Shown: one piece after another, positions 13,971 to 55,777 of the stretch
How the letters are laid out: each line of letters opens with the position of its first letter
Numbering within the stretch: the first letter of the stretch is position 1
NCBI GenBank assembly: GCA_002010065.2
Contig: MTMD02000002.1
Span: forward strand, 512,001-576,000
Source of the DNA: Candidatus Pyrohabitans jungbluthii
GTDB lineage: Archaea > Hydrothermarchaeota > Hydrothermarchaeia > Hydrothermarchaeales > BMS3B
Length of the DNA: 64,000 nt
Direction of reading: 5' to 3'
Notes under the pieces: model-generated
What the model was told of the DNA's origin: nothing
Databases searched by the model: none
What the model saw: only the letters and a program-made list of their open reading frames with translations
Made by a program: the position numbers and the translations under genes

Positions 13971-14099
13971 AAACTCACCTACTTTATTTTTCTTTAACTA
14001 TTTAAAAAGTCTTACCATAAAGGTTGTTCGGCTTGGGGGTGAACAAAATCATAAATTTTTTCAAATCTTTATATTCAGATATGACAGCAGGGAGGTGAC

Positions 14100-14225
14100 A
14101 TGAAGAAGGCGGAGGAAACTCCTCAAGCCACAGGCGCACAGCCCAAGGAAGCATGCGGCCCAACTGCTCTGCTCCTGCTTGTGCTACTTCCCCTAATTCC
14201 CAGGCTCAGGAGGGTGGTAGGATGA
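14100..14225 (+). CDS. 41-aa mini-protein consisting almost only of a CGP-CTERM sorting signal
   Basis: Below the ORF-track cutoff. GGAGGTGA RBS, then MKKAEETPQATGAQPKEACGPTALLLLVLLPLIPRLRRVVG*. Confidence 0.6.
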   Translation: MKKAEETPQATGAQPKEACGPTALLLLVLLPLIPRLRRVVG

Positions 14226-14265
14226 AGTATGAAATAGGCCCGTAACCCCCAGCTGAGCTAGGGGA

Positions 14266-18833: not shown

Positions 18834-18837
18834 AACC

Positions 18838-23539: not shown

Positions 23540-23635
23540 CGAGAGAAAAACATTTAAAGGAGTTGGTACACACATACCACCACCCGGAGGTCGAGAAAAA
23601 TTTTAAGGCCGTGATAGAAAAGTTTATAAAAAAAA
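23540..23635 (+). promoter_or_regulatory. Several BRE/TATA-like elements upstream of the cytochrome locus
   Basis: GAGAAAAACATTTAAAGG, GAGAAAAATTTTAAGG, GAAAAGTTTATAAAA. Confidence 0.4.
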
Positions 23636-23691
23636 AGTTTAATAATATTTAATCATATTAGCAAAGTGTGTATAGGATAGGTGTGGGCCAC

Positions 23692-24693
23692 ATGTCGTTG
23701 TCATGGAATAAAGGCATTGTACTGATAGTGTTGCTTCTAAGCATCTCAGTGGTTTATGCAGCTGACCAGTTCTATTCGATTAAAGGTGGCCCCACTTACA
23801 ACGGCTCAAGCGATGGCTGGGTTATGGTTTGGGATGCAGGAGCAACTCAGGACAGCTACCTTAGAGTTGCCTTCTCTGTTAACCGCCCAGCCTACAAGCT
23901 TGGAAAGACTGTTTCGGTAATGATACGTACCGACGGCTATTACTCCAGAGACTCTGGCTGGTGGTATACAGAGGGTGGCGCAAGTGTTGATTATGTAAAG
24001 TTTTACTATCCGAACGGCACACTTATAAAGCAGCTCAGCGGTACCACTGGCAGCGACGGCGTGTGGAAGGACGACACCGCCTTAATGCTCACAAAAGACA
24101 TGCCCATGGGCACCTACAAGGTGGAGGCGAGCGTAACTAAAGGCACGACAACTGTGGGGGATGATGCTGGAGGCTACATGACCATCTACTTCGACGTCGG
24201 AGGAGAGCTTCACCTCACGGTTAATACAAATGCAAGCACAGATAGCAGAGGAAGGTTTGTAGCAGCAAACGGCTCGGTGGTTAGAATTTATGGGCAAATC
24301 CTTCAGCCCAATGGCGACGTGTTCAGCAGCACCACAGTACCTTCGGGAAGTGCTGTTACTGTAAGGCTTGGAATAGTTAAGCCCGACGAGAGCTATACAT
24401 ACATGACCCAAACAACAACCACTGGCGACTATTCCTTTGATGTTCTCCTTGACCAAGTGGGACATTACTTCTTTGTTGTTACCGCCAACTGCACAGTAGG
24501 CGGTCCGATTACTGGCATCAAGTACGTTGTATGTGAGGGAAGAAATCAGACAAATATTATTTCAACGGGAGAGTGGCCAGCGGCGGGGGGCTCCTTCGCA
24601 TCCTCTCCTCTCGCAATTAGCGTGGCGGTGATTCTTGCAATAATATCAGCTTACTACCCAGGGGGTATGCTGTATAGGCGGCTCAGGAAGTAA
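23692..24693 (+). CDS. Secreted Ig/MG2-like protein with C-terminal membrane anchor
   Basis: Signal peptide; RPAYKLGKTVSV...YPNG...GTTGSDG...GTYKVEA; C-terminal TM plus RRLRK. Confidence 0.75.
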   Translation: MSLSWNKGIVLIVLLLSISVVYAADQFYSIKGGPTYNGSSDGWVMVWDAGATQDSYLRVAFSVNRPAYKLGKTVSVMIRTDGYYSRDSGWWYTEGGASVDYVKFYYPNGTLIKQLSGTTGSDGVWKDDTALMLTKDMPMGTYKVEASVTKGTTTVGDDAGGYMTIYFDVGGELHLTVNTNASTDSRGRFVAANGSVVRIYGQILQPNGDVFSSTTVPSGSAVTVRLGIVKPDESYTYMTQTTTTGDYSFDVLLDQVGHYFFVVTANCTVGGPITGIKYVVCEGRNQTNIISTGEWPAAGGSFASSPLAISVAVILAIISAYYPGGMLYRRLRK

Positions 24694-24715
24694 TCACGGT
24701 AAGTGCAGAGGCAGC

Positions 24716-27700
24716 ATGAGAAGAGGGCTGGTGTTAGTCTTTACTTTAGCTGTGCTTTTCTCAGTTTCGCCTGTGCATGCCAAGGTTACAAACTGGAACG
24801 TCAACATAGAGTTCAGAGATACCGCCAACAATATAATAACAAGCATACAGCCCGGGCAGACCTTCTATGTGAACATAAGCGTCACCGCCTCCAGCGACAC
24901 CGGCGAAACCTATCCCATGGCGAAGCTGAGCATCCCCCCGGGCTTTACCATAATACCCAAAAAGATAAACGACGGCACCTACGACATTGAAGAACACAGC
25001 GTTCATTTTTACAGTCTTGAAGCAGATGGAGACTGGTATGTTACCGGCTCCAGCCTGGCAGATGGCACAAACTGGAACACAGGCTGGGTTGTTAAGGCTG
25101 ACGACTACTTAATTCCCGGGAAAAACTACACCTTCTTTATTGCGATGTATGACGAGGACACCACAGGCGGTACCAAAACGAGTTACTATGAAAACTTCCC
25201 TGCCTACTACCAAGGCTGGGGTAATAAGTTTTACAAGGATATTTACGTCCAGCCCACTATTTCCACCCTAACGGTAAGTGTGAACTCGACCACCTACGAC
25301 ATAGGTGGAGGCGTAACCGTAGAGGGCTTCAAGATAGGCGACACCGTGCTCATAAGCGGCACCACTGAACCTAACGCTAATGTAAACATTACTATTTGGA
25401 AGCCCCAGTACACCATTGGCGCAAAAATCACAACCACAGCGGATGGTAGTGGGAACTTCCAGGCAACCTACACCCTGACGGAAAACTGGGACAGGCGCGG
25501 TATATATACCGTTGAAGTGATAGCCTACAAGGCTCCCAACCTCATAGCAAGAACCAAAATAAACTTCTACGTTGGCGACAACATAGCTCAGAACGATAAA
25601 GCTTTCAGAAGCAAAAGGGTTTCCCCTCCTGACATAAGCTACTCCTGCGGCGATTGTCATACCGCCGTATTCTTCAACTACAGCGTTATGAGCCAGGCAG
25701 ACCAGATTAATCCTGGCAGTGAAGGGACACCTGATCCACATAAGGAGCATCCTTACCGCTCACCCCCAACAGAGAATTGCGACTGGATTCATTGGATTCA
25801 CGACCCTCTGCCGGAATTTAATGAAAGCAGACTGGCTTCCGGTGTGTTGTTAAAGCAGGATCGCGTTACTGCTGGAAGAAGCTACACACAGCCTGGAGAG
25901 ATTACCCACCTTGCCGAGTGGGAGAGGGATGATGACATACCTCCACCCTATGCGATTACCGAGTTTTATGCAGAGCCATTAAATTATCCTGACTCCGCTG
26001 GTGAGTGGACTGCTTGCAGTATGTGCCACCTGAATGTTCGTGGCTACTCTTACGTGAGGACTGACAACACTCTCACTTGCACACCAAAGGGCAACAACCG
26101 TCCGGGATGTCACGTTGTTGAGAGGGAGGGAACCCATAAATACACACCTTCCTGCCAGAACTGCCACGTTCCTTCGGGAAAGAGCTTGAAGGATGTTGAG
26201 CTTCCCAACTGCCTCAAGTGCCATGCTATTAAAAACTATTGGGAATATGGCGTAGGCACTTCCCACGCCACTGACAGTAGTGGCAGTGATATTACAGATG
26301 CTGTAATGGCAGATGATGAGAATGTTTTTAGATTGGATACTTCGGGGCAGTATGTTGAGGCAAATATCTCCGCTCCCTTCAGAGAGAAAGCCCTTCAGGT
26401 TATAAAAATCGGAGTGAACTGGAACGGCACAACCAGCGGAGGTGCGGGCAATCAGCAGATAGAGCTTCAGTACCTCGACGTAAATGGTATATGGCAGTCC
26501 GCAGGGTTATCTCCTGCTCGGACTACGCCTTTTGAAGCGACAGATTACTTCATTATTAAGAACACCTCAGACCCGAGCTTAACAAATCCCGCCGGGCTGA
26601 ATGAGCACGGTGAGATTGTGGTAAGGGTTGTATATCCAACCGATGGCAATTCTAAAGAATTTGCTGATATTGATTATATCTTCATGGACATTCTAGCGGA
26701 TGATTCAATTGCCCTCGAAGGTGCCCACGAGGGTGTGGAGTGCCTCAACTGCCACGGGCACAGCCACAACGCAACCAGGCAAATCTACTGTACCTCCTGC
26801 AAGGGTCAGAAGCTTGCCCCCGAGGGTGAGCACGTGTGGCAGAAGAAGAACGCCACCGGCGGGGATATAATAGAGGGGGTGAACACCTCCCTGTGGTGTA
26901 CAGAGTGCCACGGTGGATATGGGCACACCTCAATAACAAATACGCCTTCCTGCGCCAAGTGCCACAATCCGAGCGTTGCCAACAAGTCTTGGAAGCGGTA
27001 TTCTTATACCGAAATTCCGCCGTGGGGTCTGGACAACATCCATGGCAGAGCTAACCTCTTCTGCGAGGATTGTCACATTGATAATCACAACGTCACATTG
27101 CCCAGCTGCAACGCAGAGGGCTGCCATATCGCCAATATTTCTGATACTGTACCCAGCTCGGGCTACTACGCCACCTGGGACGACTCCACAAAGACTCACG
27201 ACCCGAGCCACAGCAGCGGTACAAACTATACCATAGAGATGCACGCATACAATGCCAGTGGTTGGTATGGCAAGAGTGACAAGAAATGGGGTGCCACCTG
27301 CGATGAGTGTCACAACAACCATACAAGTGAGGTTTACCTCAAGCTTGAGAACAAGTGGATAAATGCGAGCACCGATTCTATGGTACACTCCACCAACAGA
27401 AGTATAGCCGAGATGGTGCCCTACAATGAGAGTTATGCTTCCTACGATGCAAAGTGGTGTGTTGACTGCCATCAGGATAGAGGAAGCCACTATGGGTGGA
27501 GTTGTCTTGACTGCCACTATCGTGATGACGGCGACGACACGTTTAAGGAGCCTGCCTTCCACAGCGCTAAAATCGCAAAGTCTGGTGGGGGCGGCCCCAA
27601 CTGTATAGGTTGCCACGACATTGGAGGCAGCGCCACCCACATTATAAACGTCACCGCCTTAAATCTGAGCGTTCATGGCGGAATAGTTACCAATTCAAGT

Positions 27701-30700
27701 ACTTATTCCACGTATGGCTTGAATCAGAGCTGCTACGCGTGCCACACCAGTGATGGTCAGGCACCTGATGACATGGGCGACCGTTACAACAACCCGTGGA
27801 CATGTGTTGACTGCCATACCAGCGGAGGTGCAAAGGCTGGTGCCTATGGTGCGCCCATAGTTAGTGAGCACTATCGCAGTGGAGATAATATAACTGCTGT
27901 TGGTTATGCCAGCACCGACGTACTCAGCTGCCTTGCATGCCACCAGAATGCCACTGATGCCAGCCTGAGGGACTTCATGCTCATCCCTGCCAACGATCCA
28001 AATGAGGGTAGCTCCGTCTCAGATGTTGATGGAGATGGGATTAAGGGTGGCAACATAAGCTTCTACCACTATGGTAAGGATAACAGCTGGTTGAGAACAG
28101 GGCCTGGTGGCAGCACTTCCTGTCAGTTCTGCCATCAGAACAACAGCATCTTCACTGCAGTAATGAGCGATTCCACTCACAACAGCATGCAGAACCACAC
28201 TGACAATGCTGTTGTAGACTGTACTGACTGTCATGGTACTGGCTGGATACACAATGCATCGCTCACCAAGCCTGTGCTTACTGCGAGTGATGACAGCGTA
28301 TGTACAAGCTGTCATACAACCAAGAGCCGGCACAACAGCGCTGGCAACCGCGCCAATGCTGAGGAGGTAAAGTGTATTGCCTGCCACACTGGTGATGTAA
28401 ACACCTACCAGCCTAGAGACATCCACGGCATAAAGATTATTAACTCCTCGGGTGGTTATGAACAGTGGGGCACCTCTTCTCCAGCGACCTGTGTCACCTG
28501 CCACCAGAGCAACCTTGGTGGCAAATTTGCGAACGCTTCGCAGGTACCTTCACCGCTCAATCACAGCCAGGATCCCATTGCTGGGCAGAAGTGGAACAAG
28601 ACTTCGCAGGCTTACTGGACTCCTGGCGATGATCAGGAGGCGTGCAACTACTGCCATGGCGATTCCAGGCACGAGGCTAATGCACTGGGCAATGCCTCAG
28701 CTATAGAGGATTCGCTGAGCAGGAACGCCACTGACCTCAGCACCACCAGCTGGTGTGCTGGTTGCCACTACTCGGAGGCGAGCAACTACAACGGCACTGC
28801 CTTCTCGCCTCAGCCGCCCGAGATAATCACCTGGGGTGGCACAGCCAATGATGGCACAAGCTTCCAGAACCACAGCGGCTACCTCTCCAGTGGATACGAC
28901 GATAGTGTGTGCACCTCCTGCCACAGTGGTAGCACCTCTTCGACTGCGCTGTATCCGCACAACGTTTACGAGGGCGTCGCAGGCGGTCCCAACTGCATAA
29001 GCTGCCACGACATAGGTCAGAGTGGTGCTCCCAAGCACATCAACTTCACCGCTGTAAATTCAAGCGAGAATATTCACTTTAATCTGAACAATGCCACTCC
29101 TGTGAGTTATGATCCTGTTAACAGGATTTGCCTTGGCTGTCACAGCAGCGATGGAAGCGAGCCTGCGAGTGGACATCCCACAGGCTACAAGTCGCCTTAT
29201 ACCTGCGTAGACTGCCACGTTAACTCGCCACCTGCCCATGCAAGCAATGCTCCGCAGGTAAGGGAGCACTACCGCAATGGCAGCGAGGTGAAGGCGGTTA
29301 CGGACGCAGCCAGCGACGTGCTCAGCTGCATTGCGTGCCACCAGAACTCTACCACAGCAAATACAATGCTAATACCAGCCAACGATCCTGACTATGGCAG
29401 CTTTGATGCCGATGGAGACGGAGTTAGTGGCGGCAACATAAGCGCCTCTCACTATGGCAAGAAGCGCACTGATATTGTCAGTGGAGGCGTAACAAGCTGC
29501 GCCTACTGCCACCAGAACGCTGGAAGCGAGTTCGCTGGTGTGTTCAACAAGAGCGGTAATGCAGACATGCTTAACCATACTGACAACACCGTGGTAGACT
29601 GCACAGACAGTAACTGCCACTCCTCTGGCAGAATTCACGACTCTGCCTTAACCAAGCCGCCTACGATGTACAACAACACCTACTGTACCACATGCCACAC
29701 TGGCAAGGAGCTTCACGGCAGTAATACCATAACAGGAATAAGTCCACAGGGCAGCGGAGTCAACTGCTATGATTGCCATGCCGATGAAAACAAAGAGGTT
29801 GCTCCCATTCACGGCATAAGCTACATAAACACCACAGGCGGCTTCACAGTTTGGGATAACTCCAGTGCAGCCACCTGCAAGACCTGCCACCAGAGCAGCG
29901 TTGCTGATGCTGCTATAGGAGCAACTGCGCCCAAGATACGCTCACCGCTTCACCACAGCGATGATCCCATAGCCGGATGGAAGTGGAACGCCTCTGGGTA
30001 CTGGAATGACACCAACAGTGTTGAGTACGATGACTCCTGCTACTTCTGCCATGGCAGCGTGAAGCACAGCGCCAACGCCATGGGCTTAATAGTTACCAAC
30101 AACGTGACTGGGAGCAACTCCTACAACACCTCCAGCTTCGACACAAGCTACTGGTGCGCCAACTGCCACTACAGCAACAGCGCTGACAACTATGCAGGCG
30201 ACCTCTTCACGCCTAAAGTGGTTGAGATAACCTCCTGGCCAGTGAACTCAAGCGATGGGCAGCAGGAGTTTGTGAACCATACCAGTTACATCTCATCAGG
30301 TCATACTGATAGCGTTTGTAAGGGCTGCCACGGTGGCTTTGCACCTGAAACCACGGGCGACTTTGCCCACGACGTGGCTATAGGTGCAGCCGGCGGCCCC
30401 AACTGCATAAGCTGCCACGATATTGGCGCCAACCCAAGTGTAACCCACGTGATTAATGTCTCGGCCCTGCAGCAGGGTGTGCACGGCAATATTGATACCC
30501 CAGCGGATGACGCTACATATGGCTTGAATCAGAGCTGCTACGCGTGTCACACCAGTAATGGTCAGGCACCTCCAGAAGGAGATATGGGCGACCGGGCCTT
30601 TAACCCGTGGACATGTGTTGACTGCCATACCAGCGGAGGTGCAAAGGCTGGTGCCTATGGTGCGCCCATAGTTAGTGAGCACTATCGCAGTGGAGATAAT

Positions 30701-33700
30701 ATAACTGCTGTTGGTTATGCCAGCACCGACGTACTCAGCTGCCTTGCATGCCACCAGAATGCCACTGATGCCAGCCTGAGGGACTTCATGCTCATCCCTG
30801 CCAACGATCCAAATGAGGGTAGCTCCGTCTCAGATGTTGATGGAGATGGGATTAAGGGTGGCAACATAAGCTTCTACCACTATGGTAAGGATAACAGCTG
30901 GTTGAGAACAGGGCCTGGTGGCAGCACTTCCTGTCAGTTCTGCCATCAGAACAACAGCATCTTCACTGCAGTAATGAGCGATTCCACTCACAACAGCATG
31001 CAGAACCACACTGACAATGCTGTTGTAGACTGTACTGACTGTCATGGTACTGGCTGGATACACAATGCATCGCTCACCAAGCCTGTGCTTACTGCGAGTG
31101 ATGACAGCGTATGTACAAGCTGTCATACAACCAAGAGCCGGCACAACAGCGCTGGCAACCGCGCCAATGCTGAGGAGGTAAAGTGTATTGCCTGCCACAC
31201 TGGTGATGTAAACACCTACCAGCCTAGAGACATCCACGGCATAAAGATTATTAACTCCTCGGGTGGTTATGAACAGTGGGGCACCTCTTCTCCAGCGACC
31301 TGTGTCACCTGCCACCAGAGCAACCTTGGTGGCAAATTTGCGAACGCTTCGCAGGTACCTTCACCGCTCAATCACAGCCAGGATCCCATTGCTGGGCAGA
31401 AGTGGAACAAGACTTCGCAGGCTTACTGGACTCCTGGCGATGATCAGGAGGCGTGCAACTACTGCCATGGCGATTCCAGGCACGAGGCTAATGCACTGGG
31501 CAATGCCTCAGCTATAGAGGATTCGCTGAGCAGGAACGCCACTGACCTCAGCACCACCAGCTGGTGTGCTGGTTGCCACTACTCGGAGGCGAGCAACTAC
31601 AACGGCACTGCCTTCTCGCCTCAGCCGCCCGAGATAATCACCTGGGGTGGCACAGCCAATGATGGTACCACCTTCAAGAATCACAGTGAATTTGGCATTT
31701 CGCCGTCATCATATACTGACGATAAGTGCACCTCTTGCCACAGTGGTAGCACTTCTTCGACTGCGCTGTATCCGCACAACGTTTACGAGGGCGTCGCAGG
31801 CGGTCCCGAATGTACCACCTGTCACTATATAGGCAGCGCCAATCCCAACATCAACGTCACCGCCTTCTCTCTGGGTGTGCACGGCAAGATAGTTACCAAC
31901 TCCAGCACCTTCTCCACCTATGGCTACAACCAGAGCTGCTGGGCGTGCCATGCCACAGATGGTAGTGTAACTCCCAGTGGTCATCCTGATAGGCAGAAGA
32001 ACCCGTGGACCTGCGTTGACTGCCACACCTCTGGTGGAGCCAAGGCGGGTGCTTATGGCGCTCCAATAGTGAGCGAGCACTACCGCAATGGCAGCGAGGT
32101 GAAGGCGGTTACGGACGCAGCCAGTGACGTGCTCAGCTGCATTGCGTGCCACCAGAACTCTACCACAGCAAATACCATGATAATCCCGGCAAACGACCCG
32201 GATGAGGGCAGCGCTGACATGATTGATGTTGACGGCGACGGCACCAAGGGTGGTAACCTAAGCTTCTACCACTATGGTAAGAATCGTACTGATTTAATCA
32301 CAGGAGGAATAACCAGCTGTGAATACTGCCACGTGGGCGGTGGCAATGAGTTTGCCTCGCTCTTCAACAATACTCTAAATACCAACATAACCAACCACAC
32401 CGATAACAACAACCCCTACTGCACAGGCTGCCACGGCAGCGGAAGGATTCACGACGCAGCCATCTTCAAGACCAGCGTTACCAACAGCACCTTCTGCGTA
32501 AGCTGCCACGGCAGCGATGCTGTGCCAAAGCAAGCTCACGCAACAGACACCAGCGAGAACACTCTCGGTAGCGGTGTGCCCTGCGCCGACTGTCACACCT
32601 CAGTGCCCAGAGATATCCATGCAGCGAGGTACATCCTTGCAAATGGCAGCTACTCTGCGCCCTACGATAACTCTACCTATGCGGTTGCCAACTGCGTAGA
32701 TTGCCACCAGCCTGGTGGGGTGCCCTCAGCCAACTCCAAGTTCTCCAGTGCACCCATAATTTCCAAGCCCATGAACCACAGCGATAGCAACCTCTCTGGT
32801 CAGAAGTGGGGCAACTACTGGGCTCATGGCGATGATCAGAGCACGTGCAACTTCTGTCACGGTGACACCAGACACAACTCCTCTGGCCTGGGCAAGGCGA
32901 GAGTGGTTATGGGAAGCAACTCCCTCAACCAGAGCCTTGACGCTGGCATATGGTGTGCAAATTGCCACTACAAGGTTTCGTCCGAGTACAACGAAACTAA
33001 GCTCCTTAACACCTTTGGTGTGCTTCCGCCCGAAATTACCAACTACTCCACGGGTGAGATAAACTTCAGCGATGGTTCAACTTCGCAGAACCATTCTGAG
33101 CTCAACCTGGATAGCAACTATAAGGATTCTCAGTGCGACGGCTGCCACGGCTATAACAACCCGATCAAGACCTCTGGTAGCTTTGTGCACCAGGTTGCGG
33201 TTGGTAACGTGGGTGCCGAGCCCGGCGGTCCTGACTGCGTGAGCTGCCACAAGCCAGGTGGCTATGCAGAAACCTATAACCACTCCATAGATACTGATGT
33301 TATGGAGAGCAGCAGCTACATCCACCGCTACCTCAACAAGGACGCCACCGCAAGCACTTCGCTGAGCACAACCCTCAACAAAGCCTGCTGGGCATGTCAC
33401 GATCCCAAGGGTCAGGGCGTGGAGCCGGGTGCTAAGGAGCACTACAACACCACCACAACGGCGAAGCGCTGCACCGACTGCCACCTGAGCGGTGCCTTTG
33501 GCGCTCCCGTGGTGAGCGAGCACTTCTGGAATGCTCAGGAGATAAAGCTAAATAAGACAACTGCATGTGAGGACTGCCATGCAAGAGCTGAGATGGTGCT
33601 CAACCACACCGACCCCTCACCAAGTATAGCCGAGAATGCCACAATGAACGCTTCCCACTACGGCACGAAGCGCAACGATGTCAAGGCAAAGACAGGCAAC

Positions 33701-34600: not shown

Positions 34601-34666
34601 TGAGCAAAAAAGTTAAATATAAAAAAATCTAAAAAATGTTAAAAAACATTAAATATATAGGGTGAA

Positions 34667-35215
34667 GTGATGAGCGGCCTGCGTATGATGGTGCTGACGC
34701 TGGGATTGATGGCTTTGCTAACCTTAGTCATGCCCACAGCGATGGCTAAGTTCAGCGGCCAGCACCAGTTCGTGAATGGAAGTGAGGTGGATTGCGCAAA
34801 GTGCCATATTGATGTTTATGATGAGCTTACCGCTAACCCCGATGCGCCTCATGCAAACCGGAGCTGTAAGTTCTGCCATACGTGGGGTAATGAGAGTGCC
34901 CCCGGATTCTGGAAGGACCCATTGGGTTTGGATCTTAAATTTCATGCGGCTGCTACTATAGCTTGCGACAATGAATACTGCCATGGCAAGGCAGGAGCTA
35001 ACGTCACCGCTGAAATAACCAACACCTCCGCGGCGCATACGCCCTTCTACGAGAGCATGCACAACGAGCCATACCTCCAGGGCGGCAATGAAGCCTGCGT
35101 TGGCTGCCACACTCAGGTGAAGGTGAACGTCACCATATCTGAAGCCAAGGGCTTCAACATCACTGCAACGAGCAACGGTACCGACTGGAACATAACCTTC
35201 AGCATAGTACCTTAA
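34667..35215 (+). CDS. Secreted tetraheme cytochrome c, archaeal nanowire (ECN)-like subunit 1
   Basis: Signal ...MPTAMA|KFSGQHQF; CAKCH, CKFCH, CDNEYCH, NEACVGCHT; C-terminal beta-strands. Confidence 0.85.
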   Translation: MMSGLRMMVLTLGLMALLTLVMPTAMAKFSGQHQFVNGSEVDCAKCHIDVYDELTANPDAPHANRSCKFCHTWGNESAPGFWKDPLGLDLKFHAAATIACDNEYCHGKAGANVTAEITNTSAAHTPFYESMHNEPYLQGGNEACVGCHTQVKVNVTISEAKGFNITATSNGTDWNITFSIVP

Positions 35216-35284
35216 ATAAAATTTAAAGGTAATCGAAAAATATTTAAATAAGTATAAACAAAAACAAAATGGAGGTGAAAACAC

Positions 35285-35827
35285 ATGAGGAGAGTACTAC
35301 TCTTGGTGGGTGTGCTGGCACTGATGATGCTGGTGATGCCCACAGCGATGGCAAAATTCCAGAACCAGCACAGCTTCCTGAACGGCAGCAGCGTAGACTG
35401 TACCAAGTGCCACTCGGACGTCAACACGGAACTTCAGGGAAGTGACGTGAGTGTGCACAAAAATCTTGACTGCAAGGACTGCCACATAGCTCTGGGTCCG
35501 CAGGCAGCGGGCAAGGGATACCACGCTGCCGAGCTGGTGGAGTGTCTCTACTGCCACGATACCAACGCTGGTCAGAATACCACCTGGACTAATCGTCCGA
35601 TACCATCCAACAACGTTACCGCCGAGATAACCCAGACCACGGCAGCGCATAAGCCCTTCTATGAGGCGATGCTCACAGAGACCACGCTCCAGGGTGCCAA
35701 CGAAGCTTGTATAGGCTGCCACACCAATGTGCAGGTGGACGTTGCCATAACCGAACAGACCGGCTACAACATTAGCGCCACCTACGACGGTACCGGCTGG
35801 ACTGTGAGCCTGACAGGCACATTCTAA
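35285..35827 (+). CDS. Secreted tetraheme cytochrome c, ECN-like subunit 2
   Basis: GGAGGTGA RBS; ...MPTAMA|KFQNQHSF; CTKCH, CKDCH, CLYCH, NEACIGCHT; paralog of the upstream gene. Confidence 0.87.
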   Translation: MRRVLLLVGVLALMMLVMPTAMAKFQNQHSFLNGSSVDCTKCHSDVNTELQGSDVSVHKNLDCKDCHIALGPQAAGKGYHAAELVECLYCHDTNAGQNTTWTNRPIPSNNVTAEITQTTAAHKPFYEAMLTETTLQGANEACIGCHTNVQVDVAITEQTGYNISATYDGTGWTVSLTGTF

Positions 35828-35829
35828 GC

Positions 35830-35876
35830 AGGGTTAGCATAACTGCTGCTACCCTTCCCCTCTTTTTTTTATTTTC
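35830..35876 (+). terminator. Putative terminator after tetraheme gene 2
   Basis: Imperfect hairpin AGGGTTAGC...GCTACCCT followed by a T8 run. Confidence 0.55.
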
Positions 35877-35896
35877 GTTAAATTTTTGCGAGGGAA

Positions 35897-36631
35897 TTGA
35901 TGAATGCCCTTGATATAGTTGTGCTGTTTTACCTTTTGACAATGAGTTTCACCTTCCTAGTGTTCCTGCTCAGTGATAAGTTGTCCCTCCTATTCAAACG
36001 TCTTGTTACTTATGGAAAGCAGCGCAGCTTCCAGAGAAAGGTGGAGAAAAGGTATAGGGAGATGGTGGGTCTGGATAGAATACGCAAACCCACCTTTTCA
36101 GGTGCGATGCTGATAATAATCTTCTACCTCATCTTTGGCGTTTTTGCCATGAACAAGTACCTCTACTTCGCCGCCGTTGCGTCGTACAGCATGTACCCCA
36201 CCCTTGATAAGGGAGACCTTATACTTGTGCAGAGCTTTCACCTTGAGCCCGAAGTTGGAGACATTATCCTCTTCAGCGGTATAGAGGTTGGCGATGAGGA
36301 GAGGCGCGAATTCGTGAGCCACCGGGTTAAGAAAATAGAGGGTGAGAAAATATATACGGGCGGAGATGCTAGAGGTGGTCTTGACCCGTGGGTGGTGCAC
36401 CGGGAGCAGATAGTGGGCAAGGTGGTAACTCTCTTCGGTCAGCCTGTAAAAATCCCCAAGATTGGCGAGTATCTTATTATGGAAGAGGGCAAATCCATGA
36501 GAAACATCCTCCTGCTCCAGTACTTCCTCAATATGAGCAGAATTTACGGTTTTCTGATATTTATCACCGCAATGCTGCTCTACCTCTACCTCACTGCCCG
36601 TGAAGCGAGAAGGCGGGAGGTTAGTATATGA
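35897..36631 (+). CDS. Signal peptidase I (S26, ER/SipW-type Ser-His)
   Basis: VASYSMYPTLDKGDLILV, VGDIILF, VSHRV, TGGDA...DPW, IVGKV. Confidence 0.88.
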   Translation: MMNALDIVVLFYLLTMSFTFLVFLLSDKLSLLFKRLVTYGKQRSFQRKVEKRYREMVGLDRIRKPTFSGAMLIIIFYLIFGVFAMNKYLYFAAVASYSMYPTLDKGDLILVQSFHLEPEVGDIILFSGIEVGDEERREFVSHRVKKIEGEKIYTGGDARGGLDPWVVHREQIVGKVVTLFGQPVKIPKIGEYLIMEEGKSMRNILLLQYFLNMSRIYGFLIFITAMLLYLYLTAREARRREVSI

Positions 36632-37776
36632 AAACAAAGCACAAGGTCTTGCTTCTTGGTATCATCGCCATAGGCTACTACATGTTCACACTCTCCGTAG
36701 CAGAATTTAGAGGTCAGCACTCCTTCATAGCGGGTGTCCAGGTAAACTGCACCTCCTGCCATGAAAACGCTGCCTCCAACCTCTCCGCCTCTGCCTACCA
36801 CTCCAGCAAGAGCTGCACCTTCTGCCACAGCGTAACCTTTGTAAACAACTCAGCCCACGGTGCCACCACCACCATCGCCTGTACAGACTCGCTCTGCCAT
36901 GCCAACGTCACCGCTAACCTAACCTCCCCCTACGAGGCGCACAGAGACCTGTACCTTAAAGCGGAGGACTACTTCACCGGCACCTACACCTATGGTCCCA
37001 ACGAAGCGTGCATCTTCTGCCATACTAAGTATCGCAAAGAGATAACATTTTACCATCCAGAGTACATCAACTTTACCATTACAACCAACCACACATCCAA
37101 CTCCTCCTGCGACAGTGGCACCGTTAAGACCTTCAACATCACCCGCTTTGTGGTTGGACCACAGGCAACCAGACCACCCGAACTGTTTACCGACACCGGG
37201 AATCTCCACTACTTTATAAACGTTACTCAGATAAGCTGTTCCGCCAGCCCGTGCCATAAACCGATTCAAGACGCTTTAACTTATAGTATACAATATAGAG
37301 CTCACATAAGCGATGTGGAGGACGAAGGTACAGACGTGGGTCACGCTACTTCAAGCTACGACGACTCCTACTGCAAGGACTGCCACTACAACACAGCCTA
37401 TGCCTTTTTATACCCAGGCTTTGTGCACGCCGACGAGGTGCATGCTGCAGAGAAAATAAAATGCACCTCCTGCCACAGCGCTAATTTGAGTGCTCCTTTT
37501 CCCGCGTCGAATCAGGACAACAACGGCACCGAGCACGGGTGCTCCACTCTATACTATGACATAGAGAAGATTCCAATACACTACCAGGCAGATGTTTGTA
37601 TTGCCTGCCACTACCGGTATGTTCACCTGGATACAAATACTGACACATCAGCCTGCGATGCTTGCCATGTCAACAGCAACAATACCGCCTTTAACCTAAC
37701 AGTAGTTTACTATTCGGAATATTCATCAGACCCAGGTTATGTCACCATATCCGTGGTCAATCTGTCAGGCCTATAA
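36628..37776 (+). CDS. Secreted ~9-heme cytochrome with a tandem ECN-like domain pair
   Basis: A|EFRGQHSF N-terminus like the tetrahemes; 7 CxxCH and 2 CX4CH; NEACIFCHT; repeated H-(G/A)-A-x(3)-I-x-C. Confidence 0.85.
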   Translation: MKTKHKVLLLGIIAIGYYMFTLSVAEFRGQHSFIAGVQVNCTSCHENAASNLSASAYHSSKSCTFCHSVTFVNNSAHGATTTIACTDSLCHANVTANLTSPYEAHRDLYLKAEDYFTGTYTYGPNEACIFCHTKYRKEITFYHPEYINFTITTNHTSNSSCDSGTVKTFNITRFVVGPQATRPPELFTDTGNLHYFINVTQISCSASPCHKPIQDALTYSIQYRAHISDVEDEGTDVGHATSSYDDSYCKDCHYNTAYAFLYPGFVHADEVHAAEKIKCTSCHSANLSAPFPASNQDNNGTEHGCSTLYYDIEKIPIHYQADVCIACHYRYVHLDTNTDTSACDACHVNSNNTAFNLTVVYYSEYSSDPGYVTISVVNLSGL

Positions 37777-37853
37777 AAAGAGTAACTATTAAGCGGAATG
37801 TAACATTTATTAGACAGGTTAATTAATTAAAATTAATTAGAGGTGAAAAAAGA

Positions 37854-38696
37854 TTGTATGACATGGAAGTAAGGCTTGAGGAGAAGTTTGCCCTCAGTTT
37901 GTTATTTATCGCACCTTTGCTCATGGTTTATTTTCCACTCTATTTCTACTATCACGGCTTCAAACATGGGGACATGGATTTATCACATATAATACTCTCC
38001 GCCCTCCTGTTTTCTCTTGGATTTTATGCTCTTTCAGGCTCGTTCAGGATATATAGTAAAGTTAAAAAACATCTCCACCTTGAGGGAGCCTTTAAAACTC
38101 TAATATTACCTGCAGTGGAGCCCCTTCTCAGGCAGATAGCTCTTCAAACAGTGTCCATGCAGGAACTTGAGAATAAAATCTCGCAAGTCAACCGTTTTCT
38201 GGACAAAATTTCTCCAACTGATAAACCAGCCACATCCAGGGTGCAGTCAGCAGCTTTCCAGAGGAACTCCATAGCTCTCGGCATTTTAACCCTCGCCATT
38301 GCTACCTTCCTGCATCTTACCTCCAGCACCTTCCTCCAGGCTTACATAACCTTTCTACTCTTCTTCGGCTGGTGGCATCTAATAACCTCAGAATTCAACC
38401 TCCACTACTCCATCCGCTCCTACATCACCCTGGCGATTTTCGCCATAGGTGAACTCTTAATACTCTTCTTTCTCCCAACCAAAGGAGTATTCACCAACCT
38501 GTTCTACACCTACCTGAACCTTACCATTATTGTGTATGCCTACTATCGCCTGGCTTTCATAGACTCACCTCGGGTCATTATAGAAAGAAGTTTCATCGCC
38601 TACAGAACTGTTCGACACTTTCTCTCGTTACTTATCCGGGACTTCGTAGGTAGCCACTTTGAATATGGCAAAAAATTTTTAAATAATAAAAAATAA
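37854..38696 (+). CDS. Membrane protein with central coiled coil (paralog A)
   Basis: 2 TM, helical linker, 4 TM; FFGWWHLITSEF. Confidence 0.75.
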   Translation: MYDMEVRLEEKFALSLLFIAPLLMVYFPLYFYYHGFKHGDMDLSHIILSALLFSLGFYALSGSFRIYSKVKKHLHLEGAFKTLILPAVEPLLRQIALQTVSMQELENKISQVNRFLDKISPTDKPATSRVQSAAFQRNSIALGILTLAIATFLHLTSSTFLQAYITFLLFFGWWHLITSEFNLHYSIRSYITLAIFAIGELLILFFLPTKGVFTNLFYTYLNLTIIVYAYYRLAFIDSPRVIIERSFIAYRTVRHFLSLLIRDFVGSHFEYGKKFLNNKK

Positions 38697-38714
38697 TTTC
38701 ATAAAGGTGTCCTT

Positions 38715-39608
38715 ATGCGGGAGCGCATAGAACTCAACGAGAAGATTTCCCTTGCCATAGCGGGTTTTGTAGCAGTAGGTATGTTTTTACTATCCATATA
38801 TTCCCTCTTCAAGGATATCTTTATCTCCTTCTCTGCACCTGGGATTCTCTTGGACATAGCCTTTATATTCCTTTCTCTATATCTCGGAAGCGGTATACTG
38901 AAAACTTACAACAGAATTACATACTCTGCCGCTATAGACAGGGAATTCAGAGAGGCTCTTCTAAAGAGGCTTGAGCCTGCCCTCAAAGAGGTTGCAAAGA
39001 GTCATGTGTACCTCCAGGAGCTTGACAAAAAGGTGACACTTCTCTCAAAAAGGGTCTCTACTATAAGTGCCGCATACCCCGCCAGGCCTGCCCGAGCAGC
39101 GCCTGGAGAATTTTCCCCCTTCTTCCAGAGGGCGGTATTCATGAGCCTCCTCACCCTTGGGTCACTGATTTTTGTAAACCTTCGCATAAGCCAGACCGGT
39201 GCTTATGTGGTACTTGTTCTTTTCTTCCTGTGGTGGCTCATAATTACTGATGAATTTGGGCTTTTCGCAGATTTTGGTGCCTATATGTTCATAATAGGCC
39301 CTCTGCTTGTCGTTCCCATAGCTTCAATAATCCTCCTTGCCTATCTTGATGTATTTTACATGCTCATGATTCTTTATCTTGCTCTGGTAATATACGTCTT
39401 ACTTTATTACTCTGCGGCCAGCTATCAGGTTACTGGCAGAATACCCCTGCTTGAGAGAAGCAACTACAACATGTACAGAAATGGCGGTGCTAAGGGTGCA
39501 AACGCTCGCGAGAGGGATGGCGGCTCTCTAATTAACGATAACGGTAGAAAACCCTCCTTCACCAGACGTGTTGTGGAACTTTTGCTGGAAAGGTTAAAGC
39601 ATGGTTAG
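38715..39608 (+). CDS. Membrane protein with central coiled coil (paralog B)
   Basis: Same layout; LEPALKEVA...QELDKKV; FFLWWLIITDEF. Confidence 0.75.
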   Translation: MRERIELNEKISLAIAGFVAVGMFLLSIYSLFKDIFISFSAPGILLDIAFIFLSLYLGSGILKTYNRITYSAAIDREFREALLKRLEPALKEVAKSHVYLQELDKKVTLLSKRVSTISAAYPARPARAAPGEFSPFFQRAVFMSLLTLGSLIFVNLRISQTGAYVVLVLFFLWWLIITDEFGLFADFGAYMFIIGPLLVVPIASIILLAYLDVFYMLMILYLALVIYVLLYYSAASYQVTGRIPLLERSNYNMYRNGGAKGANARERDGGSLINDNGRKPSFTRRVVELLLERLKHG

Positions 39609-39656
39609 GGCAGAAAAATCACCAGTTTTAAAATTAAAAAGAGGAGCAGGCAGTGT

Positions 39657-40322
39657 ATGAAGGGCGTAATACTTACGGTGGTGATTATGTTAATGATACT
39701 GGCAGCATCTCTGTATGCTCAGGAGGTAGTGGAGATAAGGGAGGAGCAAGCGAAGCTGCTGAAGAGATACACCGCCTTCTCAACCCACTCCGGCTGGATA
39801 TGCAATAAGTGTCATCTTCAGATAATGGGAGAACAGAGGTTCAGGGAGGTGACAGGTGGGTGTTTGTGCCATCGCAGTCCCTATGGTAAACCCGCCAAAG
39901 TTACAATAGAGAATGTCCAGAAATATGCCCACGACGCAAACCACTGCATGCTGTGCCATGCGGGGACAAAGAATGTGAATACTGATGTCTATCACAAAAT
40001 TGTACACTACAACGTATCCTGCAGCAAATGTCACGATATAAGGAAAAAAAATGATGAGTTCGATATAATAAAGCCGAAAAGTACATATTGCAGAGGATGC
40101 CATTCAGAGGATGTGCATGTGGTGCATGGTCTTAGACTGGACAGGCTCTGCGAATACTGCCATGGAAAAGAATTTGCAAGAAAGTATGTGTCCGTGGGGC
40201 TTGAACCACCTGAGGTGAAGTTAGAGAAGAATCAAACCCTGGTAAAACCAAAGGAGGAAGAGAGAGGTGGTATACCATCCATCAGCGAACTCATATTCAA
40301 GATTTTGGACATTATTTTCTGA
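39657..40322 (+). CDS. Multiheme cytochrome c (5 CxxCH plus one CxCH)
   Basis: N-terminal hydrophobic segment; CNKCH, CLCH, CMLCH, CSKCH, CRGCH, CEYCH; amphipathic tail SISELIFKILDIIF. Confidence 0.85.
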   Translation: MKGVILTVVIMLMILAASLYAQEVVEIREEQAKLLKRYTAFSTHSGWICNKCHLQIMGEQRFREVTGGCLCHRSPYGKPAKVTIENVQKYAHDANHCMLCHAGTKNVNTDVYHKIVHYNVSCSKCHDIRKKNDEFDIIKPKSTYCRGCHSEDVHVVHGLRLDRLCEYCHGKEFARKYVSVGLEPPEVKLEKNQTLVKPKEEERGGIPSISELIFKILDIIF

Positions 40323-40764
40323 GGTAGCCGCTATTCTCGCGATAATTGCCTTGGTGGCAGGATGCACTCTACCGAAGCAGGAGGAGGTGATTGTGTATAA
40401 GGTTATCGCAGAGATAAATGAGAGTCATCAGATAACCAATGTAACCTGCTACCAGGAGAAACTACCGATAAACAAGGTAAAAATAACCACTGGTGAAGGG
40501 GAACCACCTATGGTTGGAATGAAGGTTTTTGTTGTGGACAATGTCAACAAGAAAATTCACGGCTCCAACTGGGCGCTTATTGCCTATGAAGGACCTGGCA
40601 AATATGAAGCTACATTGTATGTAGAAGACGGATACATTCCGAGTGAGGTAGATGTGGTAGGCTGTTATGTAAAATTGTTGGATAGGTATCTTAAGCCGGT
40701 TTCAATGAGTGGAGGGGAAGCAGAGATAGTATATCCAAGAGAGAAACTGGAGGAGAGCAAATGA
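40267..40764 (+). CDS. Putative lipoprotein
   Basis: Lipobox-like IIALVAGC; start uncertain. Confidence 0.6.
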   Translation: MVYHPSANSYSRFWTLFSEVAAILAIIALVAGCTLPKQEEVIVYKVIAEINESHQITNVTCYQEKLPINKVKITTGEGEPPMVGMKVFVVDNVNKKIHGSNWALIAYEGPGKYEATLYVEDGYIPSEVDVVGCYVKLLDRYLKPVSMSGGEAEIVYPREKLEESK

Positions 40765-42470
40765 GGTATGCTCTTGCTTTCGTGGTTTTCCTAATATTAA
40801 TCTCAGGTGTTGCTCATGCTCAGTCGGAAATAGTACTCGTTGACAGTGTCTTAGGCTTGGGAAATTATGAAGCAAGATCTACCAACATCTTCAAGCCGGG
40901 GGATACCGTAAAAGTCTACATGGAAGCGGACGACGTAAACCACCGCGGCCTTGTGGCGGTGAATTTTGTGGTGTTCCTGTACAACACCTATAGTGGTCAT
41001 TATGAGCTTTGGGATTTTCAGAGGCTCAGGGTGAGGTACCTCAACTACAGGGAAAAGGATACATATGCGGTTTACGAATTCAAAATACCTGAAGACTTCA
41101 ATCCCGGGGAATATACAATAAAGATTGCAGCCTACGACGTTGCAAATGAAGAGAATTTAAACGAGGTTTTCGCACAAATGCAAAACTTTTTTGAACCTGA
41201 TTTCTCAAAACCCAACACCTATGTGAATGCTCCGCAGGGTGAGGATGCAGCGGACGCGTACTATGGAAACCTGGGATTAATTAAATCAGAGGACTGGAGA
41301 ACGCTGAAGTTCATAAAAACTCTCAGCTTTAAGGTGGTTACTTCCCCGCGGGAGGTGGAGGAGCTTGCCAGCAAGGTCAATTTTACAAATAAGATAAACA
41401 TAACTGCCACCTATCTGGGGTTGTTAAACGGCTCCCATCAAAACGGCATTTTTAAACAGGGAGGAGAAATGGCAATAAATGTCACAGCCAGAGGGATAAA
41501 CCACCAGGGGCTTGTGGCACTTGACTTTATTTTTACAATAGTGGATAAAGACCTCTTGCCTTTGGCGAAGCCTGAGACTTACAGGGTACGCTTCAAGACA
41601 TATAAGGAAAGGGACTTCACCTTTACCTACAACTTCACAGATAAAAAACTTGAACCCGGTGAATACTACCTTGATATCAAAATTTATGACAGAGCAAATC
41701 CAGATTACATTGAAGATGTGCTGAATGCATTGAAGTTCACGTCTGATTTCGACACCTCAAAGATAACCACATACCTTAACATGCCCGAAGGGGTTAATGT
41801 GAATGACAACACCTACTCATCTATTGGCGCTCTAAAGGCGATGGACTACACCACCCTTGTATTTTCCTCTAAGATACCATTTAAAGTGATTAAAGAGGAA
41901 GAGGTTCCCATAGAAGTCCTGGAGGAGCTGAAGCCAGAGATTGAGGTGCTTGAGCTTGAGACAAGCAAATATCTGCTAAAGCCAAACGAACCCTTTAGGG
42001 TGATCCTTACTGTCAAGAATCACGGAGGCAGCGGGAGGGCTTCCATAACCGTTACTCTGTCAGGCGAGACTCGTGAATATCGCCTGCCAAAAGACTTTTT
42101 ATTTGAGGCGAATGAGACCAGAAAGGTATCTTTTGAGATAAATCTGCCCATGGAGGAAGGAGTCTGGCGAGTAGGCGTTGTGAACACCACAATCATTCGC
42201 CCTGTTTTCGTCTTTGCAGGTGAGCTGGGCAAGAAGGAGGAGGTGCCTGAGGAGGAACTGGAAGAGCGGCTCAAGCCGCAAAAGAGGGAGAGGAACCCCT
42301 ACCCAATGGCCATCCTTGCAGCAGTTCTGTTGCCTCTCTTAATTCTCAAGCTGGTTATTAAGGGCTTGAAGATACCGGTGAGTGAATGGACCGGATTGGG
42401 TCTAAACTTTACAATAGCTGTTGTTCTTATCCTCTTTGCCGCTTATGCCGTCTATTATTTCATTTTATGA
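40761..42470 (+). CDS. Secreted, C-terminally anchored protein with duplicated Ig-like domain
   Basis: Signal peptide; repeats IFKPGD..VNHRGLVAVNF..PGEY..YD / IFKQGG..INHQGLVALDF..PGEY..YD; CARDB-like domain; two C-terminal TM. Confidence 0.78.
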   Translation: MRYALAFVVFLILISGVAHAQSEIVLVDSVLGLGNYEARSTNIFKPGDTVKVYMEADDVNHRGLVAVNFVVFLYNTYSGHYELWDFQRLRVRYLNYREKDTYAVYEFKIPEDFNPGEYTIKIAAYDVANEENLNEVFAQMQNFFEPDFSKPNTYVNAPQGEDAADAYYGNLGLIKSEDWRTLKFIKTLSFKVVTSPREVEELASKVNFTNKINITATYLGLLNGSHQNGIFKQGGEMAINVTARGINHQGLVALDFIFTIVDKDLLPLAKPETYRVRFKTYKERDFTFTYNFTDKKLEPGEYYLDIKIYDRANPDYIEDVLNALKFTSDFDTSKITTYLNMPEGVNVNDNTYSSIGALKAMDYTTLVFSSKIPFKVIKEEEVPIEVLEELKPEIEVLELETSKYLLKPNEPFRVILTVKNHGGSGRASITVTLSGETREYRLPKDFLFEANETRKVSFEINLPMEEGVWRVGVVNTTIIRPVFVFAGELGKKEEVPEEELEERLKPQKRERNPYPMAILAAVLLPLLILKLVIKGLKIPVSEWTGLGLNFTIAVVLILFAAYAVYYFIL

Positions 42471-42483
42471 TAATGGGGTAAGG

Positions 42484-42939
42484 CGGTATTGGGACAAAAC
42501 TCCTCTAGGCTGGATTCTCACCCTCACCGTAAACAGGTTATGCAGCACAGCGATGACAAAGATAGCCATCTCCTGTCTATCTTCTCTTCTCTGCCTGAAA
42601 AACCAGCTTCACTCAGGTTGCGTTTGAAATACCTCTTCAGGTAGCTGAGAGGCGAGCATCTTCAGGATAATCCTGCTTAGAAATATTCTTCTTAGGGATA
42701 ACGTATACTGCCACTTCCTTTCCCAAAAGCTTAAGCACTTTCTCGAGCTATAGTATTTATCCAGTGAAATTGAATCAACCTTAGCCCCGAGTTTTTCAGC
42801 AATTTCATTGCCTTATGAAAAACCTCCATCTCAGATTTATTTGGAATAACCAGGTAGGAAACGGAGCTAAGAAGTTCCTGGTAAAAGAGCTCACGTGATA
42901 ATAGTGGATGAGTAACTATCCAATTTTGTCCCAAAGCCG
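42484..42939 (-). mobile_element. Internally deleted, frameshifted IS remnant with terminal inverted repeats (archaeal ISNCY-like transposase fragments)
   Basis: TIRs CGGTATTGGGACAAAA / CGGCTTTGGGACAAAA (14/16); flanks GGTAAGG / GATAAGG; fragments KSEMEVFHKAM, LDKYYSSRK, VYVIPKKN, YLKRYFKRNLSEAGFS, VLHNLF in shifting frames. Confidence 0.75.
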
Positions 42940-50978: not shown

Positions 50979-51101
50979 TCCACAGTCCCTCAAAACACTG
51001 GCACAACCTTTGAGACAAACCTAACCAGTTAAAACTTTATCTTAAAAATTTTCATCATGATTAAAATAATTTTTTATTTTGGCAGTTTGTCAATTTAACA
51101 T

Positions 51102-53117: not shown

Positions 53118-53121
53118 GCTT

Positions 53122-54495: not shown

Positions 54496-54497
54496 TT

Positions 54498-55697: not shown

Positions 55698-55777
55698 GAT
55701 TTCACCAGCTTGCTCTGAGGTAACCTCGCTGTTCGCTTTTATATTTATTTCAAAGGTCAAATATAAAATATTATTGC

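Follow-up and report, generated by a model that had tools for sequence, protein, structure and literature searches.

Eleven adjoining genes of the hydrothermarchaeon Candidatus Pyrohabitans jungbluthii, located at 23668–42470 in a 64,000-nt stretch of its genome (hereafter the window; G000:C2:512001-576000, from a 1.99 Mb genome in 15 contigs rated 99.95% complete), probably represent the Hydrothermarchaeota version of a conserved archaeal cytochrome-filament cluster of the AvECN/MmcX type, enlarged by lineage-specific surface genes, as judged from gene content and sequence. All eleven open reading frames (ORFs) are present on the plus strand, where the first-pass annotation of the window had placed them, and are referred to here as g1 to g11 (aa, amino acids):

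g1, 23668..24693, + strand: secreted, C-terminally anchored, beta-rich protein of 341 aa without haem; lineage-specific accessory.
g2, 24716..34600, + strand: secreted giant multihaem cytochrome of 3294 aa with 73 motifs and without a C-terminal anchor.
g3, 34667..35215, + strand: ECN-type tetrahaem cytochrome, candidate filament subunit 1; third haem site CX4CH.
g4, 35285..35827, + strand: ECN-type tetrahaem cytochrome, candidate filament subunit 2.
g5, 35897..36631, + strand: cluster-specific archaeal/ER-type signal peptidase I (S26) with additional N- and C-terminal membrane helices.
g6, 36628..37776, + strand: cytochrome with 9 haems and two ECN domains in tandem; candidate for a minor subunit, whether starter, cap or adaptor.
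g7, 37854..38696, + strand: membrane protein, divergent paralogue of g8.
g8, 38715..39608, + strand: orphan membrane protein with six helices and a long helical arm, conserved in single copy as the partner of the peptidase.
g9, 39657..40322, + strand: secreted c3/NrfB-like cytochrome with five haems; candidate for relaying electrons to the filament or away from it.
g10, 40267..40764, + strand: small lipobox protein (LVAGC); lineage-restricted accessory.
g11, 40761..42470, + strand: secreted beta-sandwich protein of 569 aa with membrane helices at its C-terminus; conserved as the final gene of the cluster.

Intergenic gaps measure 18–77 nt, with 4-nt overlaps at g5/g6 and g10/g11; the listed GTG start of g10 overlaps g9 by 56 nt, and the start codon of g10 is uncertain. 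The locus is preceded by 862 nt without genes and followed by convergent genes. Its products carry 95 haem-binding motifs, the number estimated beforehand: 73 in g2 (69 CXXCH, three CX4CH and one CXXCK; ~74 in the earlier count), four in g3 (three CXXCH, one CX4CH), four in g4 (all CXXCH), nine in g6 (seven CXXCH, two CX4CH) and five in g9 (all CXXCH; previously given as five or six). When ORFs with at least two motifs are counted (17 genome-wide), the locus accounts for 88 of the 162 genomic CXXCH motifs.

AvECN, the nanowire subunit of Archaeoglobus veneficus (PDB 8E5G), was reportedly described by Baquero et al. in 2023 (Cell). Using phmmer, g4 matched its chain 8e5g_A over residues 4–174 (E 5.6e-14) and g3 matched it with E 7.5e-12, identifying both as genuine homologues of this subunit, in line with their first description as nanowire-like tetrahaems. 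The two proteins share 51% identity, and g3 scores 189 bits on the ECN profile (residues 2–179). AvECN resembles g3 and g4 in having four c-type haems in the same order, a conserved distal His and a signal peptide followed by x-F-x-G-Q-H. However, g3 and g4 are ~80 residues shorter (180–182 vs. 262 aa; 28–31% identity by BLASTP), and unlike AvECN, two tetrahaem paralogues occur here beside a peptidase, a membrane protein and a giant cytochrome. The ECN family is large: searching 1.84 billion representative proteins with a profile retrieved 416 representative clusters at a threshold of E ≤ 1e-3 and 255 at the stricter one of E ≤ 1e-10.

Alignment of 48 ECN members showed no variation in the four CXXCH motifs or at H29 and H122, and at least 90% conservation at H58 and H80. 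g3 and g4 possess the four haem sites together with the conserved distal His residues, a pattern predicting bis-His ligation. The family has the N-terminal consensus P-x-[T/A]-x-[S/A]-x-F-x-G-Q-H-x-[F/W], on which 42–48 of the 48 sequences agree per fixed position (P19, 48; [T/A]21, 45; [S/A]23, 46; F25, 44; G27, 42; Q28, 47; H29, 48; [F/W]31, 48). This motif fits cleavage by a signal peptidase after a small residue, one position ahead of the Phe; in g3, the predicted cut falls between PTAMA and KFSGQH. A strict genome scan for P-x-[TAS]-x-[SAGT]-x-[FY]-x-x-Q-H-x-[FW] returned g3 and g4 only. The structure of the known filament agrees with such processing in one respect: the 8e5g chain as aligned by VIA-align spans residues 31–250 (220 modelled residues), which implies that the filament model begins at the Q-H of the motif, as read from the gene copy in genome G019, and that the hydrophobic N-terminus is absent. 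The product of the G019 gene and 8e5g_A are identical along 262 residues (611 bits).

Known wires donate 0, 1 or 3 His to neighbouring subunits, and 8E5G is cited as an example of inter-chain ligation, according to the available text of a preprint and a paper from one author. g4 contains exactly eight His for four haems, and the His of the N-terminal arm is thus required. An AlphaFold 2 (AF2) model of g4, built without haems, had a pLDDT of 75.8; when it was compared with 48,161 chains in VIA-align, 8e5g_A was the sole chain with Z ≥ 2 (Z 4.5, root-mean-square deviation 6.0 Å, 140 residues aligned).

That g3 and g4 form no wire at all, and act instead as soluble or surface-bound tetrahaem shuttles of c3/c7-like character while the giant cytochrome gives reach, would agree with the c7, c3 and NrfH-like Pfam matches of the tetrahaems and with a 73-haem chain that, by rough estimate rather than computation, could span tens of nanometres. 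In the published work as far as available, MmcX is active in Shewanella without filament evidence (PMC11176372), an ECN-type filament of Methanoperedens was left unresolved by cryo-electron microscopy (PMC13748539), and the physiological role of archaeal filaments is called unresolved. We nevertheless regard this scenario as quite improbable, given the full-length homology to a polymerising protein (8e5g_A), the conserved N-terminal His arm and the absence of a spare His in g4, as well as natural tandem fusions of the ECN domain, which suggest head-to-tail contact between units.

One such fusion is g6, previously described as a nine-haem paralogue and resolved here into two ECN domains in tandem with nine motifs. 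Domain 1 (residues 2–169, 97 bits) includes the signal peptide and an EFRGQH arm; domain 2 (residues 193–356, 34 bits) begins at profile position 31. Homologues of g6 with two to three ECN domains and 7–11 haems lie between the peptidase and membrane protein genes in Methanoperedens-type loci and adjoin both genes in GoM-Arc1. At one GoM-Arc1 locus (L027, 7447-12858), four tandem ECN paralogues, an ORF with four motifs that resembles ECN only weakly, and a tandem-ECN gene for nine haems are followed by the peptidase gene; between lineages, the copy number of subunit genes ranges from 1 to 4.

To place the locus among its relatives, 77 distinct genomic loci encoding ECN family members were annotated with the eleven proteins. 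The S26 peptidase g5 occurs in 25 of them and the g8-type membrane protein in 22, each time together with the peptidase, the two being adjacent or parted by g6 alone in 22 loci. g9-type pentahaem and g11-type proteins were each found at 18 loci, giant-like cytochromes at nine, g10 at six (all Hydrothermarchaeota-type) and g1 at one (L013, 45 bits), where it stands directly upstream of the giant cytochrome gene. At a laxer threshold, g10 gained one more weak match (35 bits) in a locus of the ANME-1 group of anaerobic methanotrophic archaea (ANME). Homologues of g11 score 137–262 bits in Hydrothermarchaeota-type loci. In Methanoperedens, ANME-1, GoM-Arc1 and an Archaeoglobus metagenome-assembled genome (MAG), they score 55–68 bits, for the most part within the N-terminal ~150 residues.

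The recurrent order is ECN gene(s), S26 peptidase, tandem-ECN, membrane protein, (pentahaem) and Ig-like protein. It is found in loci titled Hydrothermarchaeota, Methanoperedens, Methanophagales (ANME-1), GoM-Arc1 and Methanocellales, and partially in Syntrophoarchaeum and an Archaeoglobus MAG. In named records, the closest relatives of the tetrahaem are from Hydrothermarchaeota MAGs, including ‘Ca. Pyrohabitans sp. JdFR-17’ of the same genus, whose locus (L013) keeps nine of the eleven genes in order—g1, giant cytochrome, two ECNs, S26 peptidase, membrane protein, pentahaem, lipoprotein and Ig protein—while g6 and the second membrane paralogue are missing; another locus (L012) retains the giant–ECN order. 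Synteny of all eleven genes across archaea, put forward in the first-pass annotation as a check on its proposal, thus extends to about six core genes in several archaeal orders, but not to g1, g2 and g10. By their distribution, the latter three are lineage add-ons outside the widely conserved unit.

Co-occurrence in whole genomes was compared by hand. In a sample of 81 Archaeoglobi genomes, ECN and the membrane protein are each present in 29, with both in 28 and neither in 51; the singletons are G058 (ECN alone) and G065 (membrane protein alone). Within the phylum of P. jungbluthii (38 genomes), 27 carry ECN and 20 of these 27 also have the membrane protein, which never occurs there without ECN; the seven ECN-only genomes are 62–97% complete. 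Two g7/g8-type copies occur in this phylum only in G000 and G121; otherwise, the membrane protein is single-copy and ECN multi-copy. The peptidase and membrane protein genes are 41–91 bp apart in five complete Archaeoglobi genomes; in the four besides G019, this spacing is 41–72 bp, and the pair lies ≤1.5 kb from ECN genes in three and 7.2 kb in one. In G019 itself, the two genes downstream of AvECN encode, in this order, a 5-haem ECN paralogue and a g9-like pentahaem protein (E 2e-14, 32% identity), a g9-like gene two genes downstream being a feature noted for AvECN and the window alike.

As regards the peptidase, g5 scores 27.9 bits on Peptidase_S26 (PF10502; cut-off 22.9) and 50.6 bits on TIGR02228, slightly below the cut-off of 51.85, compared with 121 bits on TIGR02228 for the housekeeping signal peptidase (G000:C2:135632-136105). 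S98, H142, D157 and D163 are invariant in 28 cluster-type g5 homologues and align with the housekeeping copy, and the 28 cluster-type peptidases have additional terminal helices in common. On this sequence evidence, g5 is a second, divergent archaeal/ER-type (Sec11/SipW-type) signal peptidase with an intact catalytic set, in line with its designation as a dedicated S26 enzyme. A precedent for such an arrangement exists outside archaea: in Bacillus subtilis, the SipW peptidase is encoded beside TasA. The latter, a subunit of fibres, carries an aromatic residue at P2' and is processed by this private ER/archaeal-type S26 peptidase (PMC10269814). TasA differs in its unrelated fold and lack of haems, and g5 reaches only 20.3 bits on the SipW model (cut-off 190). 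No SipW-type signal-peptide model was among the NCBIfam matches listed for g3, g4 and g6, a library not checked for containing such a model.

The membrane proteins g7 and g8 are paralogues, as had been noted (29% identity, E 2e-18), and neither matched a Pfam or NCBIfam entry. The AF2 model of g8 (pLDDT 81) consists of six membrane helices and a long helical arm (helices at 7–36, 41–120, 135–156, 162–181, 187–210 and 213–240); it had no usable match in the ESM Atlas and none in PDB using Foldseek at E ≤ 0.001. In 26 sequences of the g8 family, W173, W174 and Y231 alone are invariant. The family has no conserved His or Cys, and g7 and g8 lack haem motifs, which speaks against both a haem-ligating role and electron carriage; the label ‘membrane conduit’, attached to the pair in the first-pass annotation, was rejected on these grounds. 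Haem handlers of the CcmC/CcmF/CcsBA class need a WWD-type motif and a haem-ligating His. With no conserved His and no PF01578 match, g7 and g8 fall outside this class.

A pair of this kind has been described before. Chadwick 2022 (PMC9012536) reports, as far as the accessible text goes, a signal peptidase gene and an unannotated ‘8x TMH’ gene restricted to ANME, Syntrophoarchaeum, Argoarchaeum, Geoglobus and Ferroglobus, located beside CcmF2 and the multihaem cytochrome (MHC) gene MHC-B and in the cytochrome cluster of ANME-1, and proposes a function in maturation and haem handling. Neighbours and taxa are alike for g5/g8, again a private peptidase beside an unannotated membrane protein in cytochrome-rich archaea only. 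The published protein has eight helices and a Trp-rich loop, compared to six modelled helices and the invariant WW at 173–174 in g8, so that the two are likened by description only, and g5/g8 are embedded among ECN genes rather than placed beside CcmF2/MHC-B.

Chadwick’s work (PMC9012536) thereby supplies a published alternative, in which the pair would form a general maturation module for all large secreted c-type cytochromes, with the tetrahaems merely further clients. The position beside CcmF2 and the giant S-layer protein MHC-B, the reported absence of the pair from a cytochrome-less ANME-1 subclade and, in the window, its presence in one operon with a 73-haem protein would all agree with this. 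We consider such a general role unlikely here, since the membrane protein family has no conserved His (W173, W174 and Y231 being its sole invariant residues) and no PF01578 match, a full CcmC/E/F set and a housekeeping peptidase are present elsewhere in the genome, and the F-x-G-Q-H arm is missing from g2, g9, g1 and g11, whose signal peptides are ordinary. Moreover, ECN-domain genes are the nearest neighbours of the pair in 22 of the 77 loci.

The giant cytochrome g2 begins with a haem-free domain of ~310 aa. Its Pfam matches comprise cytochrome families only—Cytochrome_C7 (9 stretches), MtrC/MtrF domain II/IV (14 stretches) and c3_2—with no S-layer or pectin-lyase domain among them. The resemblance to MtrC/OmcA-type domain II/IV-like haem modules (PF22113, 184 bits over the 14 stretches) is at the domain level only. 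The core consists of ~4.5 copies of a unit of ~468 aa and 12 haems. Two copies, residues 1072–1538 and 2009–2475, are 86% identical, pointing to a recent internal duplication of ~2.8 kb. The protein contains 106 N-x-S/T sequons. Among four public DNA runs, no independent contig bridged the repeat region (27.7–32.1 kb), and the number of repeats, together with the total of 73 motifs that depends on it, is therefore that of the present assembly; the flanks (23600-27742 and 32146-42500) were each found within single contigs in two runs (X4, X5). In the same runs, a stretch of ~100 bp in the haem-free N-terminal domain (24868-24970) is strain-variable, with >30 substitutions and small indels, in a 4-kb piece whose remainder is nearly invariant (47 differences in total).

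Giant archaeal multihaem cytochromes, as known from available descriptions of ANME MHC-A/B/C, Ferroglobus, Geoglobus and Hydrothermarchaeota, share with g2 dozens of motifs, a haem-free N-terminal domain and CX4CH sites. ANME MHC-A/B/C are defined by an S-layer domain with a C-terminal helix in types A and B or by an N-terminal pectin-lyase domain in type C, and g2 does not belong to them: its N-terminal 315 aa gave weak Fn3/Big matches only, Pfam assigned neither of these domains, and a C-terminal hydrophobic helix was not found. In MHC-C, as reported, a pectin-lyase-type domain is fused to the cytochrome, whereas here a beta-helix protein is encoded by a separate neighbouring gene on the opposite strand. 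Two large NosD/parallel beta-helix and Big_13 surface proteins (1815 and 867 aa; 42964-50993, - strand) converge on the locus; the 867-aa protein has a PGF-pre-PGF domain (75 bits), and the 1815-aa one ends in CGP and a hydrophobic tail.

The distribution of g1 and g2 raises the question of whether the eleven genes are one unit. In an alternative that deserves serious weight, though we do not favour it, g1–g2 and the ECN cluster g3–g11 would be two adjacent, independent modules rather than a single 11-gene machine. The rarity of g1 (1/77) and of giant-like genes (9/77) at ECN loci agrees with this, as does the start of the widely conserved block at the ECN genes; besides, the giants in equivalent position at the same-genus loci L013 and L012 are much shorter (34 and 40 CXXCH), so that the g1–g2 part appears to evolve separately. 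Conversely, g1 to g3 share one strand with gaps of just 22 nt (g1–g2) and 66 nt (g2–g3), the order g1–giant–ECN is kept in L013 and giant–ECN in L012, and giant-like genes flank ECN genes also in the Methanoperedens loci L022 and L023 (822 and 669 bits, respectively).

Of the remaining products, g9 matches PF02085 (24.1 bits) as well as NrfB-like and c7 families. g1 has a signal-type N-terminus and a hydrophobic helix at 310–328 followed by a basic tail, with a weak MG2 match (E 0.021). g11 has a signal peptide and hydrophobic helices at 515–533 and 551–569, and matches Wzt_C (E 1.8e-10) and MG2 (E 1.9e-4). Of the earlier description of g1 and g11 as anchored Ig proteins, the anchoring is borne out by signal peptides and C-terminal hydrophobic helices, and the ‘Ig’ label depends on the weak MG2 matches of both and on Wzt_C in g11. 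The two were also considered as paralogues and rejected, their best similarity having an E of 0.15. The lipoprotein assignment of g10 is backed by its lipobox-like LVAGC; no family match was obtained in Pfam or NCBIfam.

Taken together, we infer wire polymerisation, long-range electron transfer and an assembly role for the peptidase and membrane protein, and the following sequence of events can be envisaged. Sec would export g3 and g4, each of which would obtain four haems from the Ccm system encoded elsewhere. Their hydrophobic N-terminus would tether them until g5 cuts between P-x-[T/A]-x-[S/A] and x-F-x-G-Q-H, freeing the N-terminal arm, whose invariant His could then complete bis-His ligation during subunit stacking into a haem wire. 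g6, as a covalent double ECN unit, might be incorporated as starter, cap or adaptor. g8, duplicated as g7, would form with the peptidase a membrane platform for processing or assembly, and g9 would relay electrons between cell surface and wire, with flow possible either way, outwards to Fe(III) or a partner or inwards as uptake. g11, g1 and g10 may hold the apparatus in the envelope, and the unanchored g2 may serve as a second, very long redox element in the shared operon.

Contrary to the earlier proposal, the locus is not self-contained: the CcmC/E/F genes are encoded outside the locus, and a quinol or electron-input membrane module is absent from it. The genome has four CcmC/CcmF-type (PF01578) and two identical-scoring CcmE matches (G000:C2:98356-101422, C10:61554-62189, C3:1505-2152, C8:187153-187452); the maturation genes may exist in duplicate, a situation reported by Chadwick et al. 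in ANME. Closer to the locus, 9–11 kb upstream, PF00762 (358 bits) identifies a ferrochelatase gene and PF01593 (232 bits) one for a HemY-type flavin amine oxidoreductase, at 12525-15204 (-) and 10977-12233 (+) and adjoining a B12-binding radical SAM gene. They may contribute to haem supply and are, to our knowledge, unusual for archaea.

A bolder version of this scheme can be offered tentatively, in which the S26 peptidase and g8 would be the missing nanowire assembly machine. Cleavage would free a His arm that ligates the haem of the neighbouring subunit, making processing and polymerisation one and the same; the tandem-ECN protein would prime or cap the wire, and, in this lineage, the 73-haem cytochrome would dock as an extended terminal contact. 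Complex prediction for g5 with g8 yielded a score of 0.03, against a mark of 0.32, which speaks neither for nor against an interaction.

Several observations weigh against interpreting the locus as a filament cluster with its own assembly genes. In A. veneficus itself (G019), the one organism whose filament has been solved, the peptidase pair, 91 bp apart, is unlinked to the AvECN gene, from which it is separated by 1.57 Mb. The peptidase is found at only 25 of the 77 ECN loci, many of the others being paralogous loci or short contigs that were left unsorted, and since related genomes are not independent, the phyletic counts overstate the evidence. The placement of the pair beside CcmF2/MHC-B in ANME-2a/2b/3 suits general maturation as well as a wire-specific role (PMC9012536, available part). 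g6 lacks the Pro of the cleavage motif. The fold likeness of the g4 model to 8e5g is weak (Z 4.5), and a Foldseek search of this model against PDB gave no match at E ≤ 0.001. Finally, the sole functional tie of the giant cytochrome to the wire is adjacency, and that at nine of the 77 loci.

Two other members of the family have been studied beyond their genes. MmcX of ‘Ca. Serpentinarchaeum aceticum’ Met12 (Methanocellales; PMC11176372) belongs to the tetrahaem family of g3 and g4 according to its published tree and 8E5G comparison, and a Methanocellales locus (L041) holds the block of ECN, S26 peptidase and membrane protein seen in the window. Expression and electrochemical data reported for MmcX point to electron uptake; no neighbouring giant cytochrome is mentioned in the accessible part of that report. 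In ‘Ca. Methanoperedens vercellensis’ (PMC13748539), the tetrahaem ECN-Mv is described as 29% identical to AvECN, encoded in a gene cluster and abundant in electrode medium. Methanoperedens loci, from a different phylum, contain pentahaem, ECN, S26 peptidase, tandem-ECN (7–11 haems), membrane protein and Ig protein genes, with the pentahaem first, unlike in the window; the available text of PMC13748539 discusses no role for the peptidase or membrane protein of this cluster. We found no cytochrome-nanowire paper tying the peptidase pair to ECN assembly, in a literature search that did not extend to Baquero et al. 2023. For the lineage as a whole, the first-pass annotation knew of no comparable system. 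Kato et al. 2019 (PMC6759336), in the portion accessible, had already reported MHCs with up to 67 motifs in Hydrothermarchaeota MAGs and suggested extracellular electron transfer, iron reduction or syntrophy, so that the lineage was not without precedent.

Elsewhere in the window, two large membrane proteins with spermidine-synthase-like domains are encoded back to back just upstream of the locus (18766-22806). On its far side lie an M54 archaemetzincin-like peptidase gene (51102-51716) and an unannotated gene of 457 aa between two genes of the tubulin/FtsZ family, one scoring 85 bits and the other a weak 32.5 bits (51819-55787, - strand).

The general principle of archaeal cytochrome wires is already known, and the value of the locus is in testable candidates for their assembly. 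Three such candidates accompany the subunit genes from one archaeal order to another, namely the private signal peptidase, the orphan membrane protein present in single copy, and a covalently doubled or tripled subunit. The locus and its relatives also yield a precise predicted cleavage site for AvECN, and they extend the ECN family to 27 of 38 genomes of the Hydrothermarchaeota, archaea of the subseafloor.

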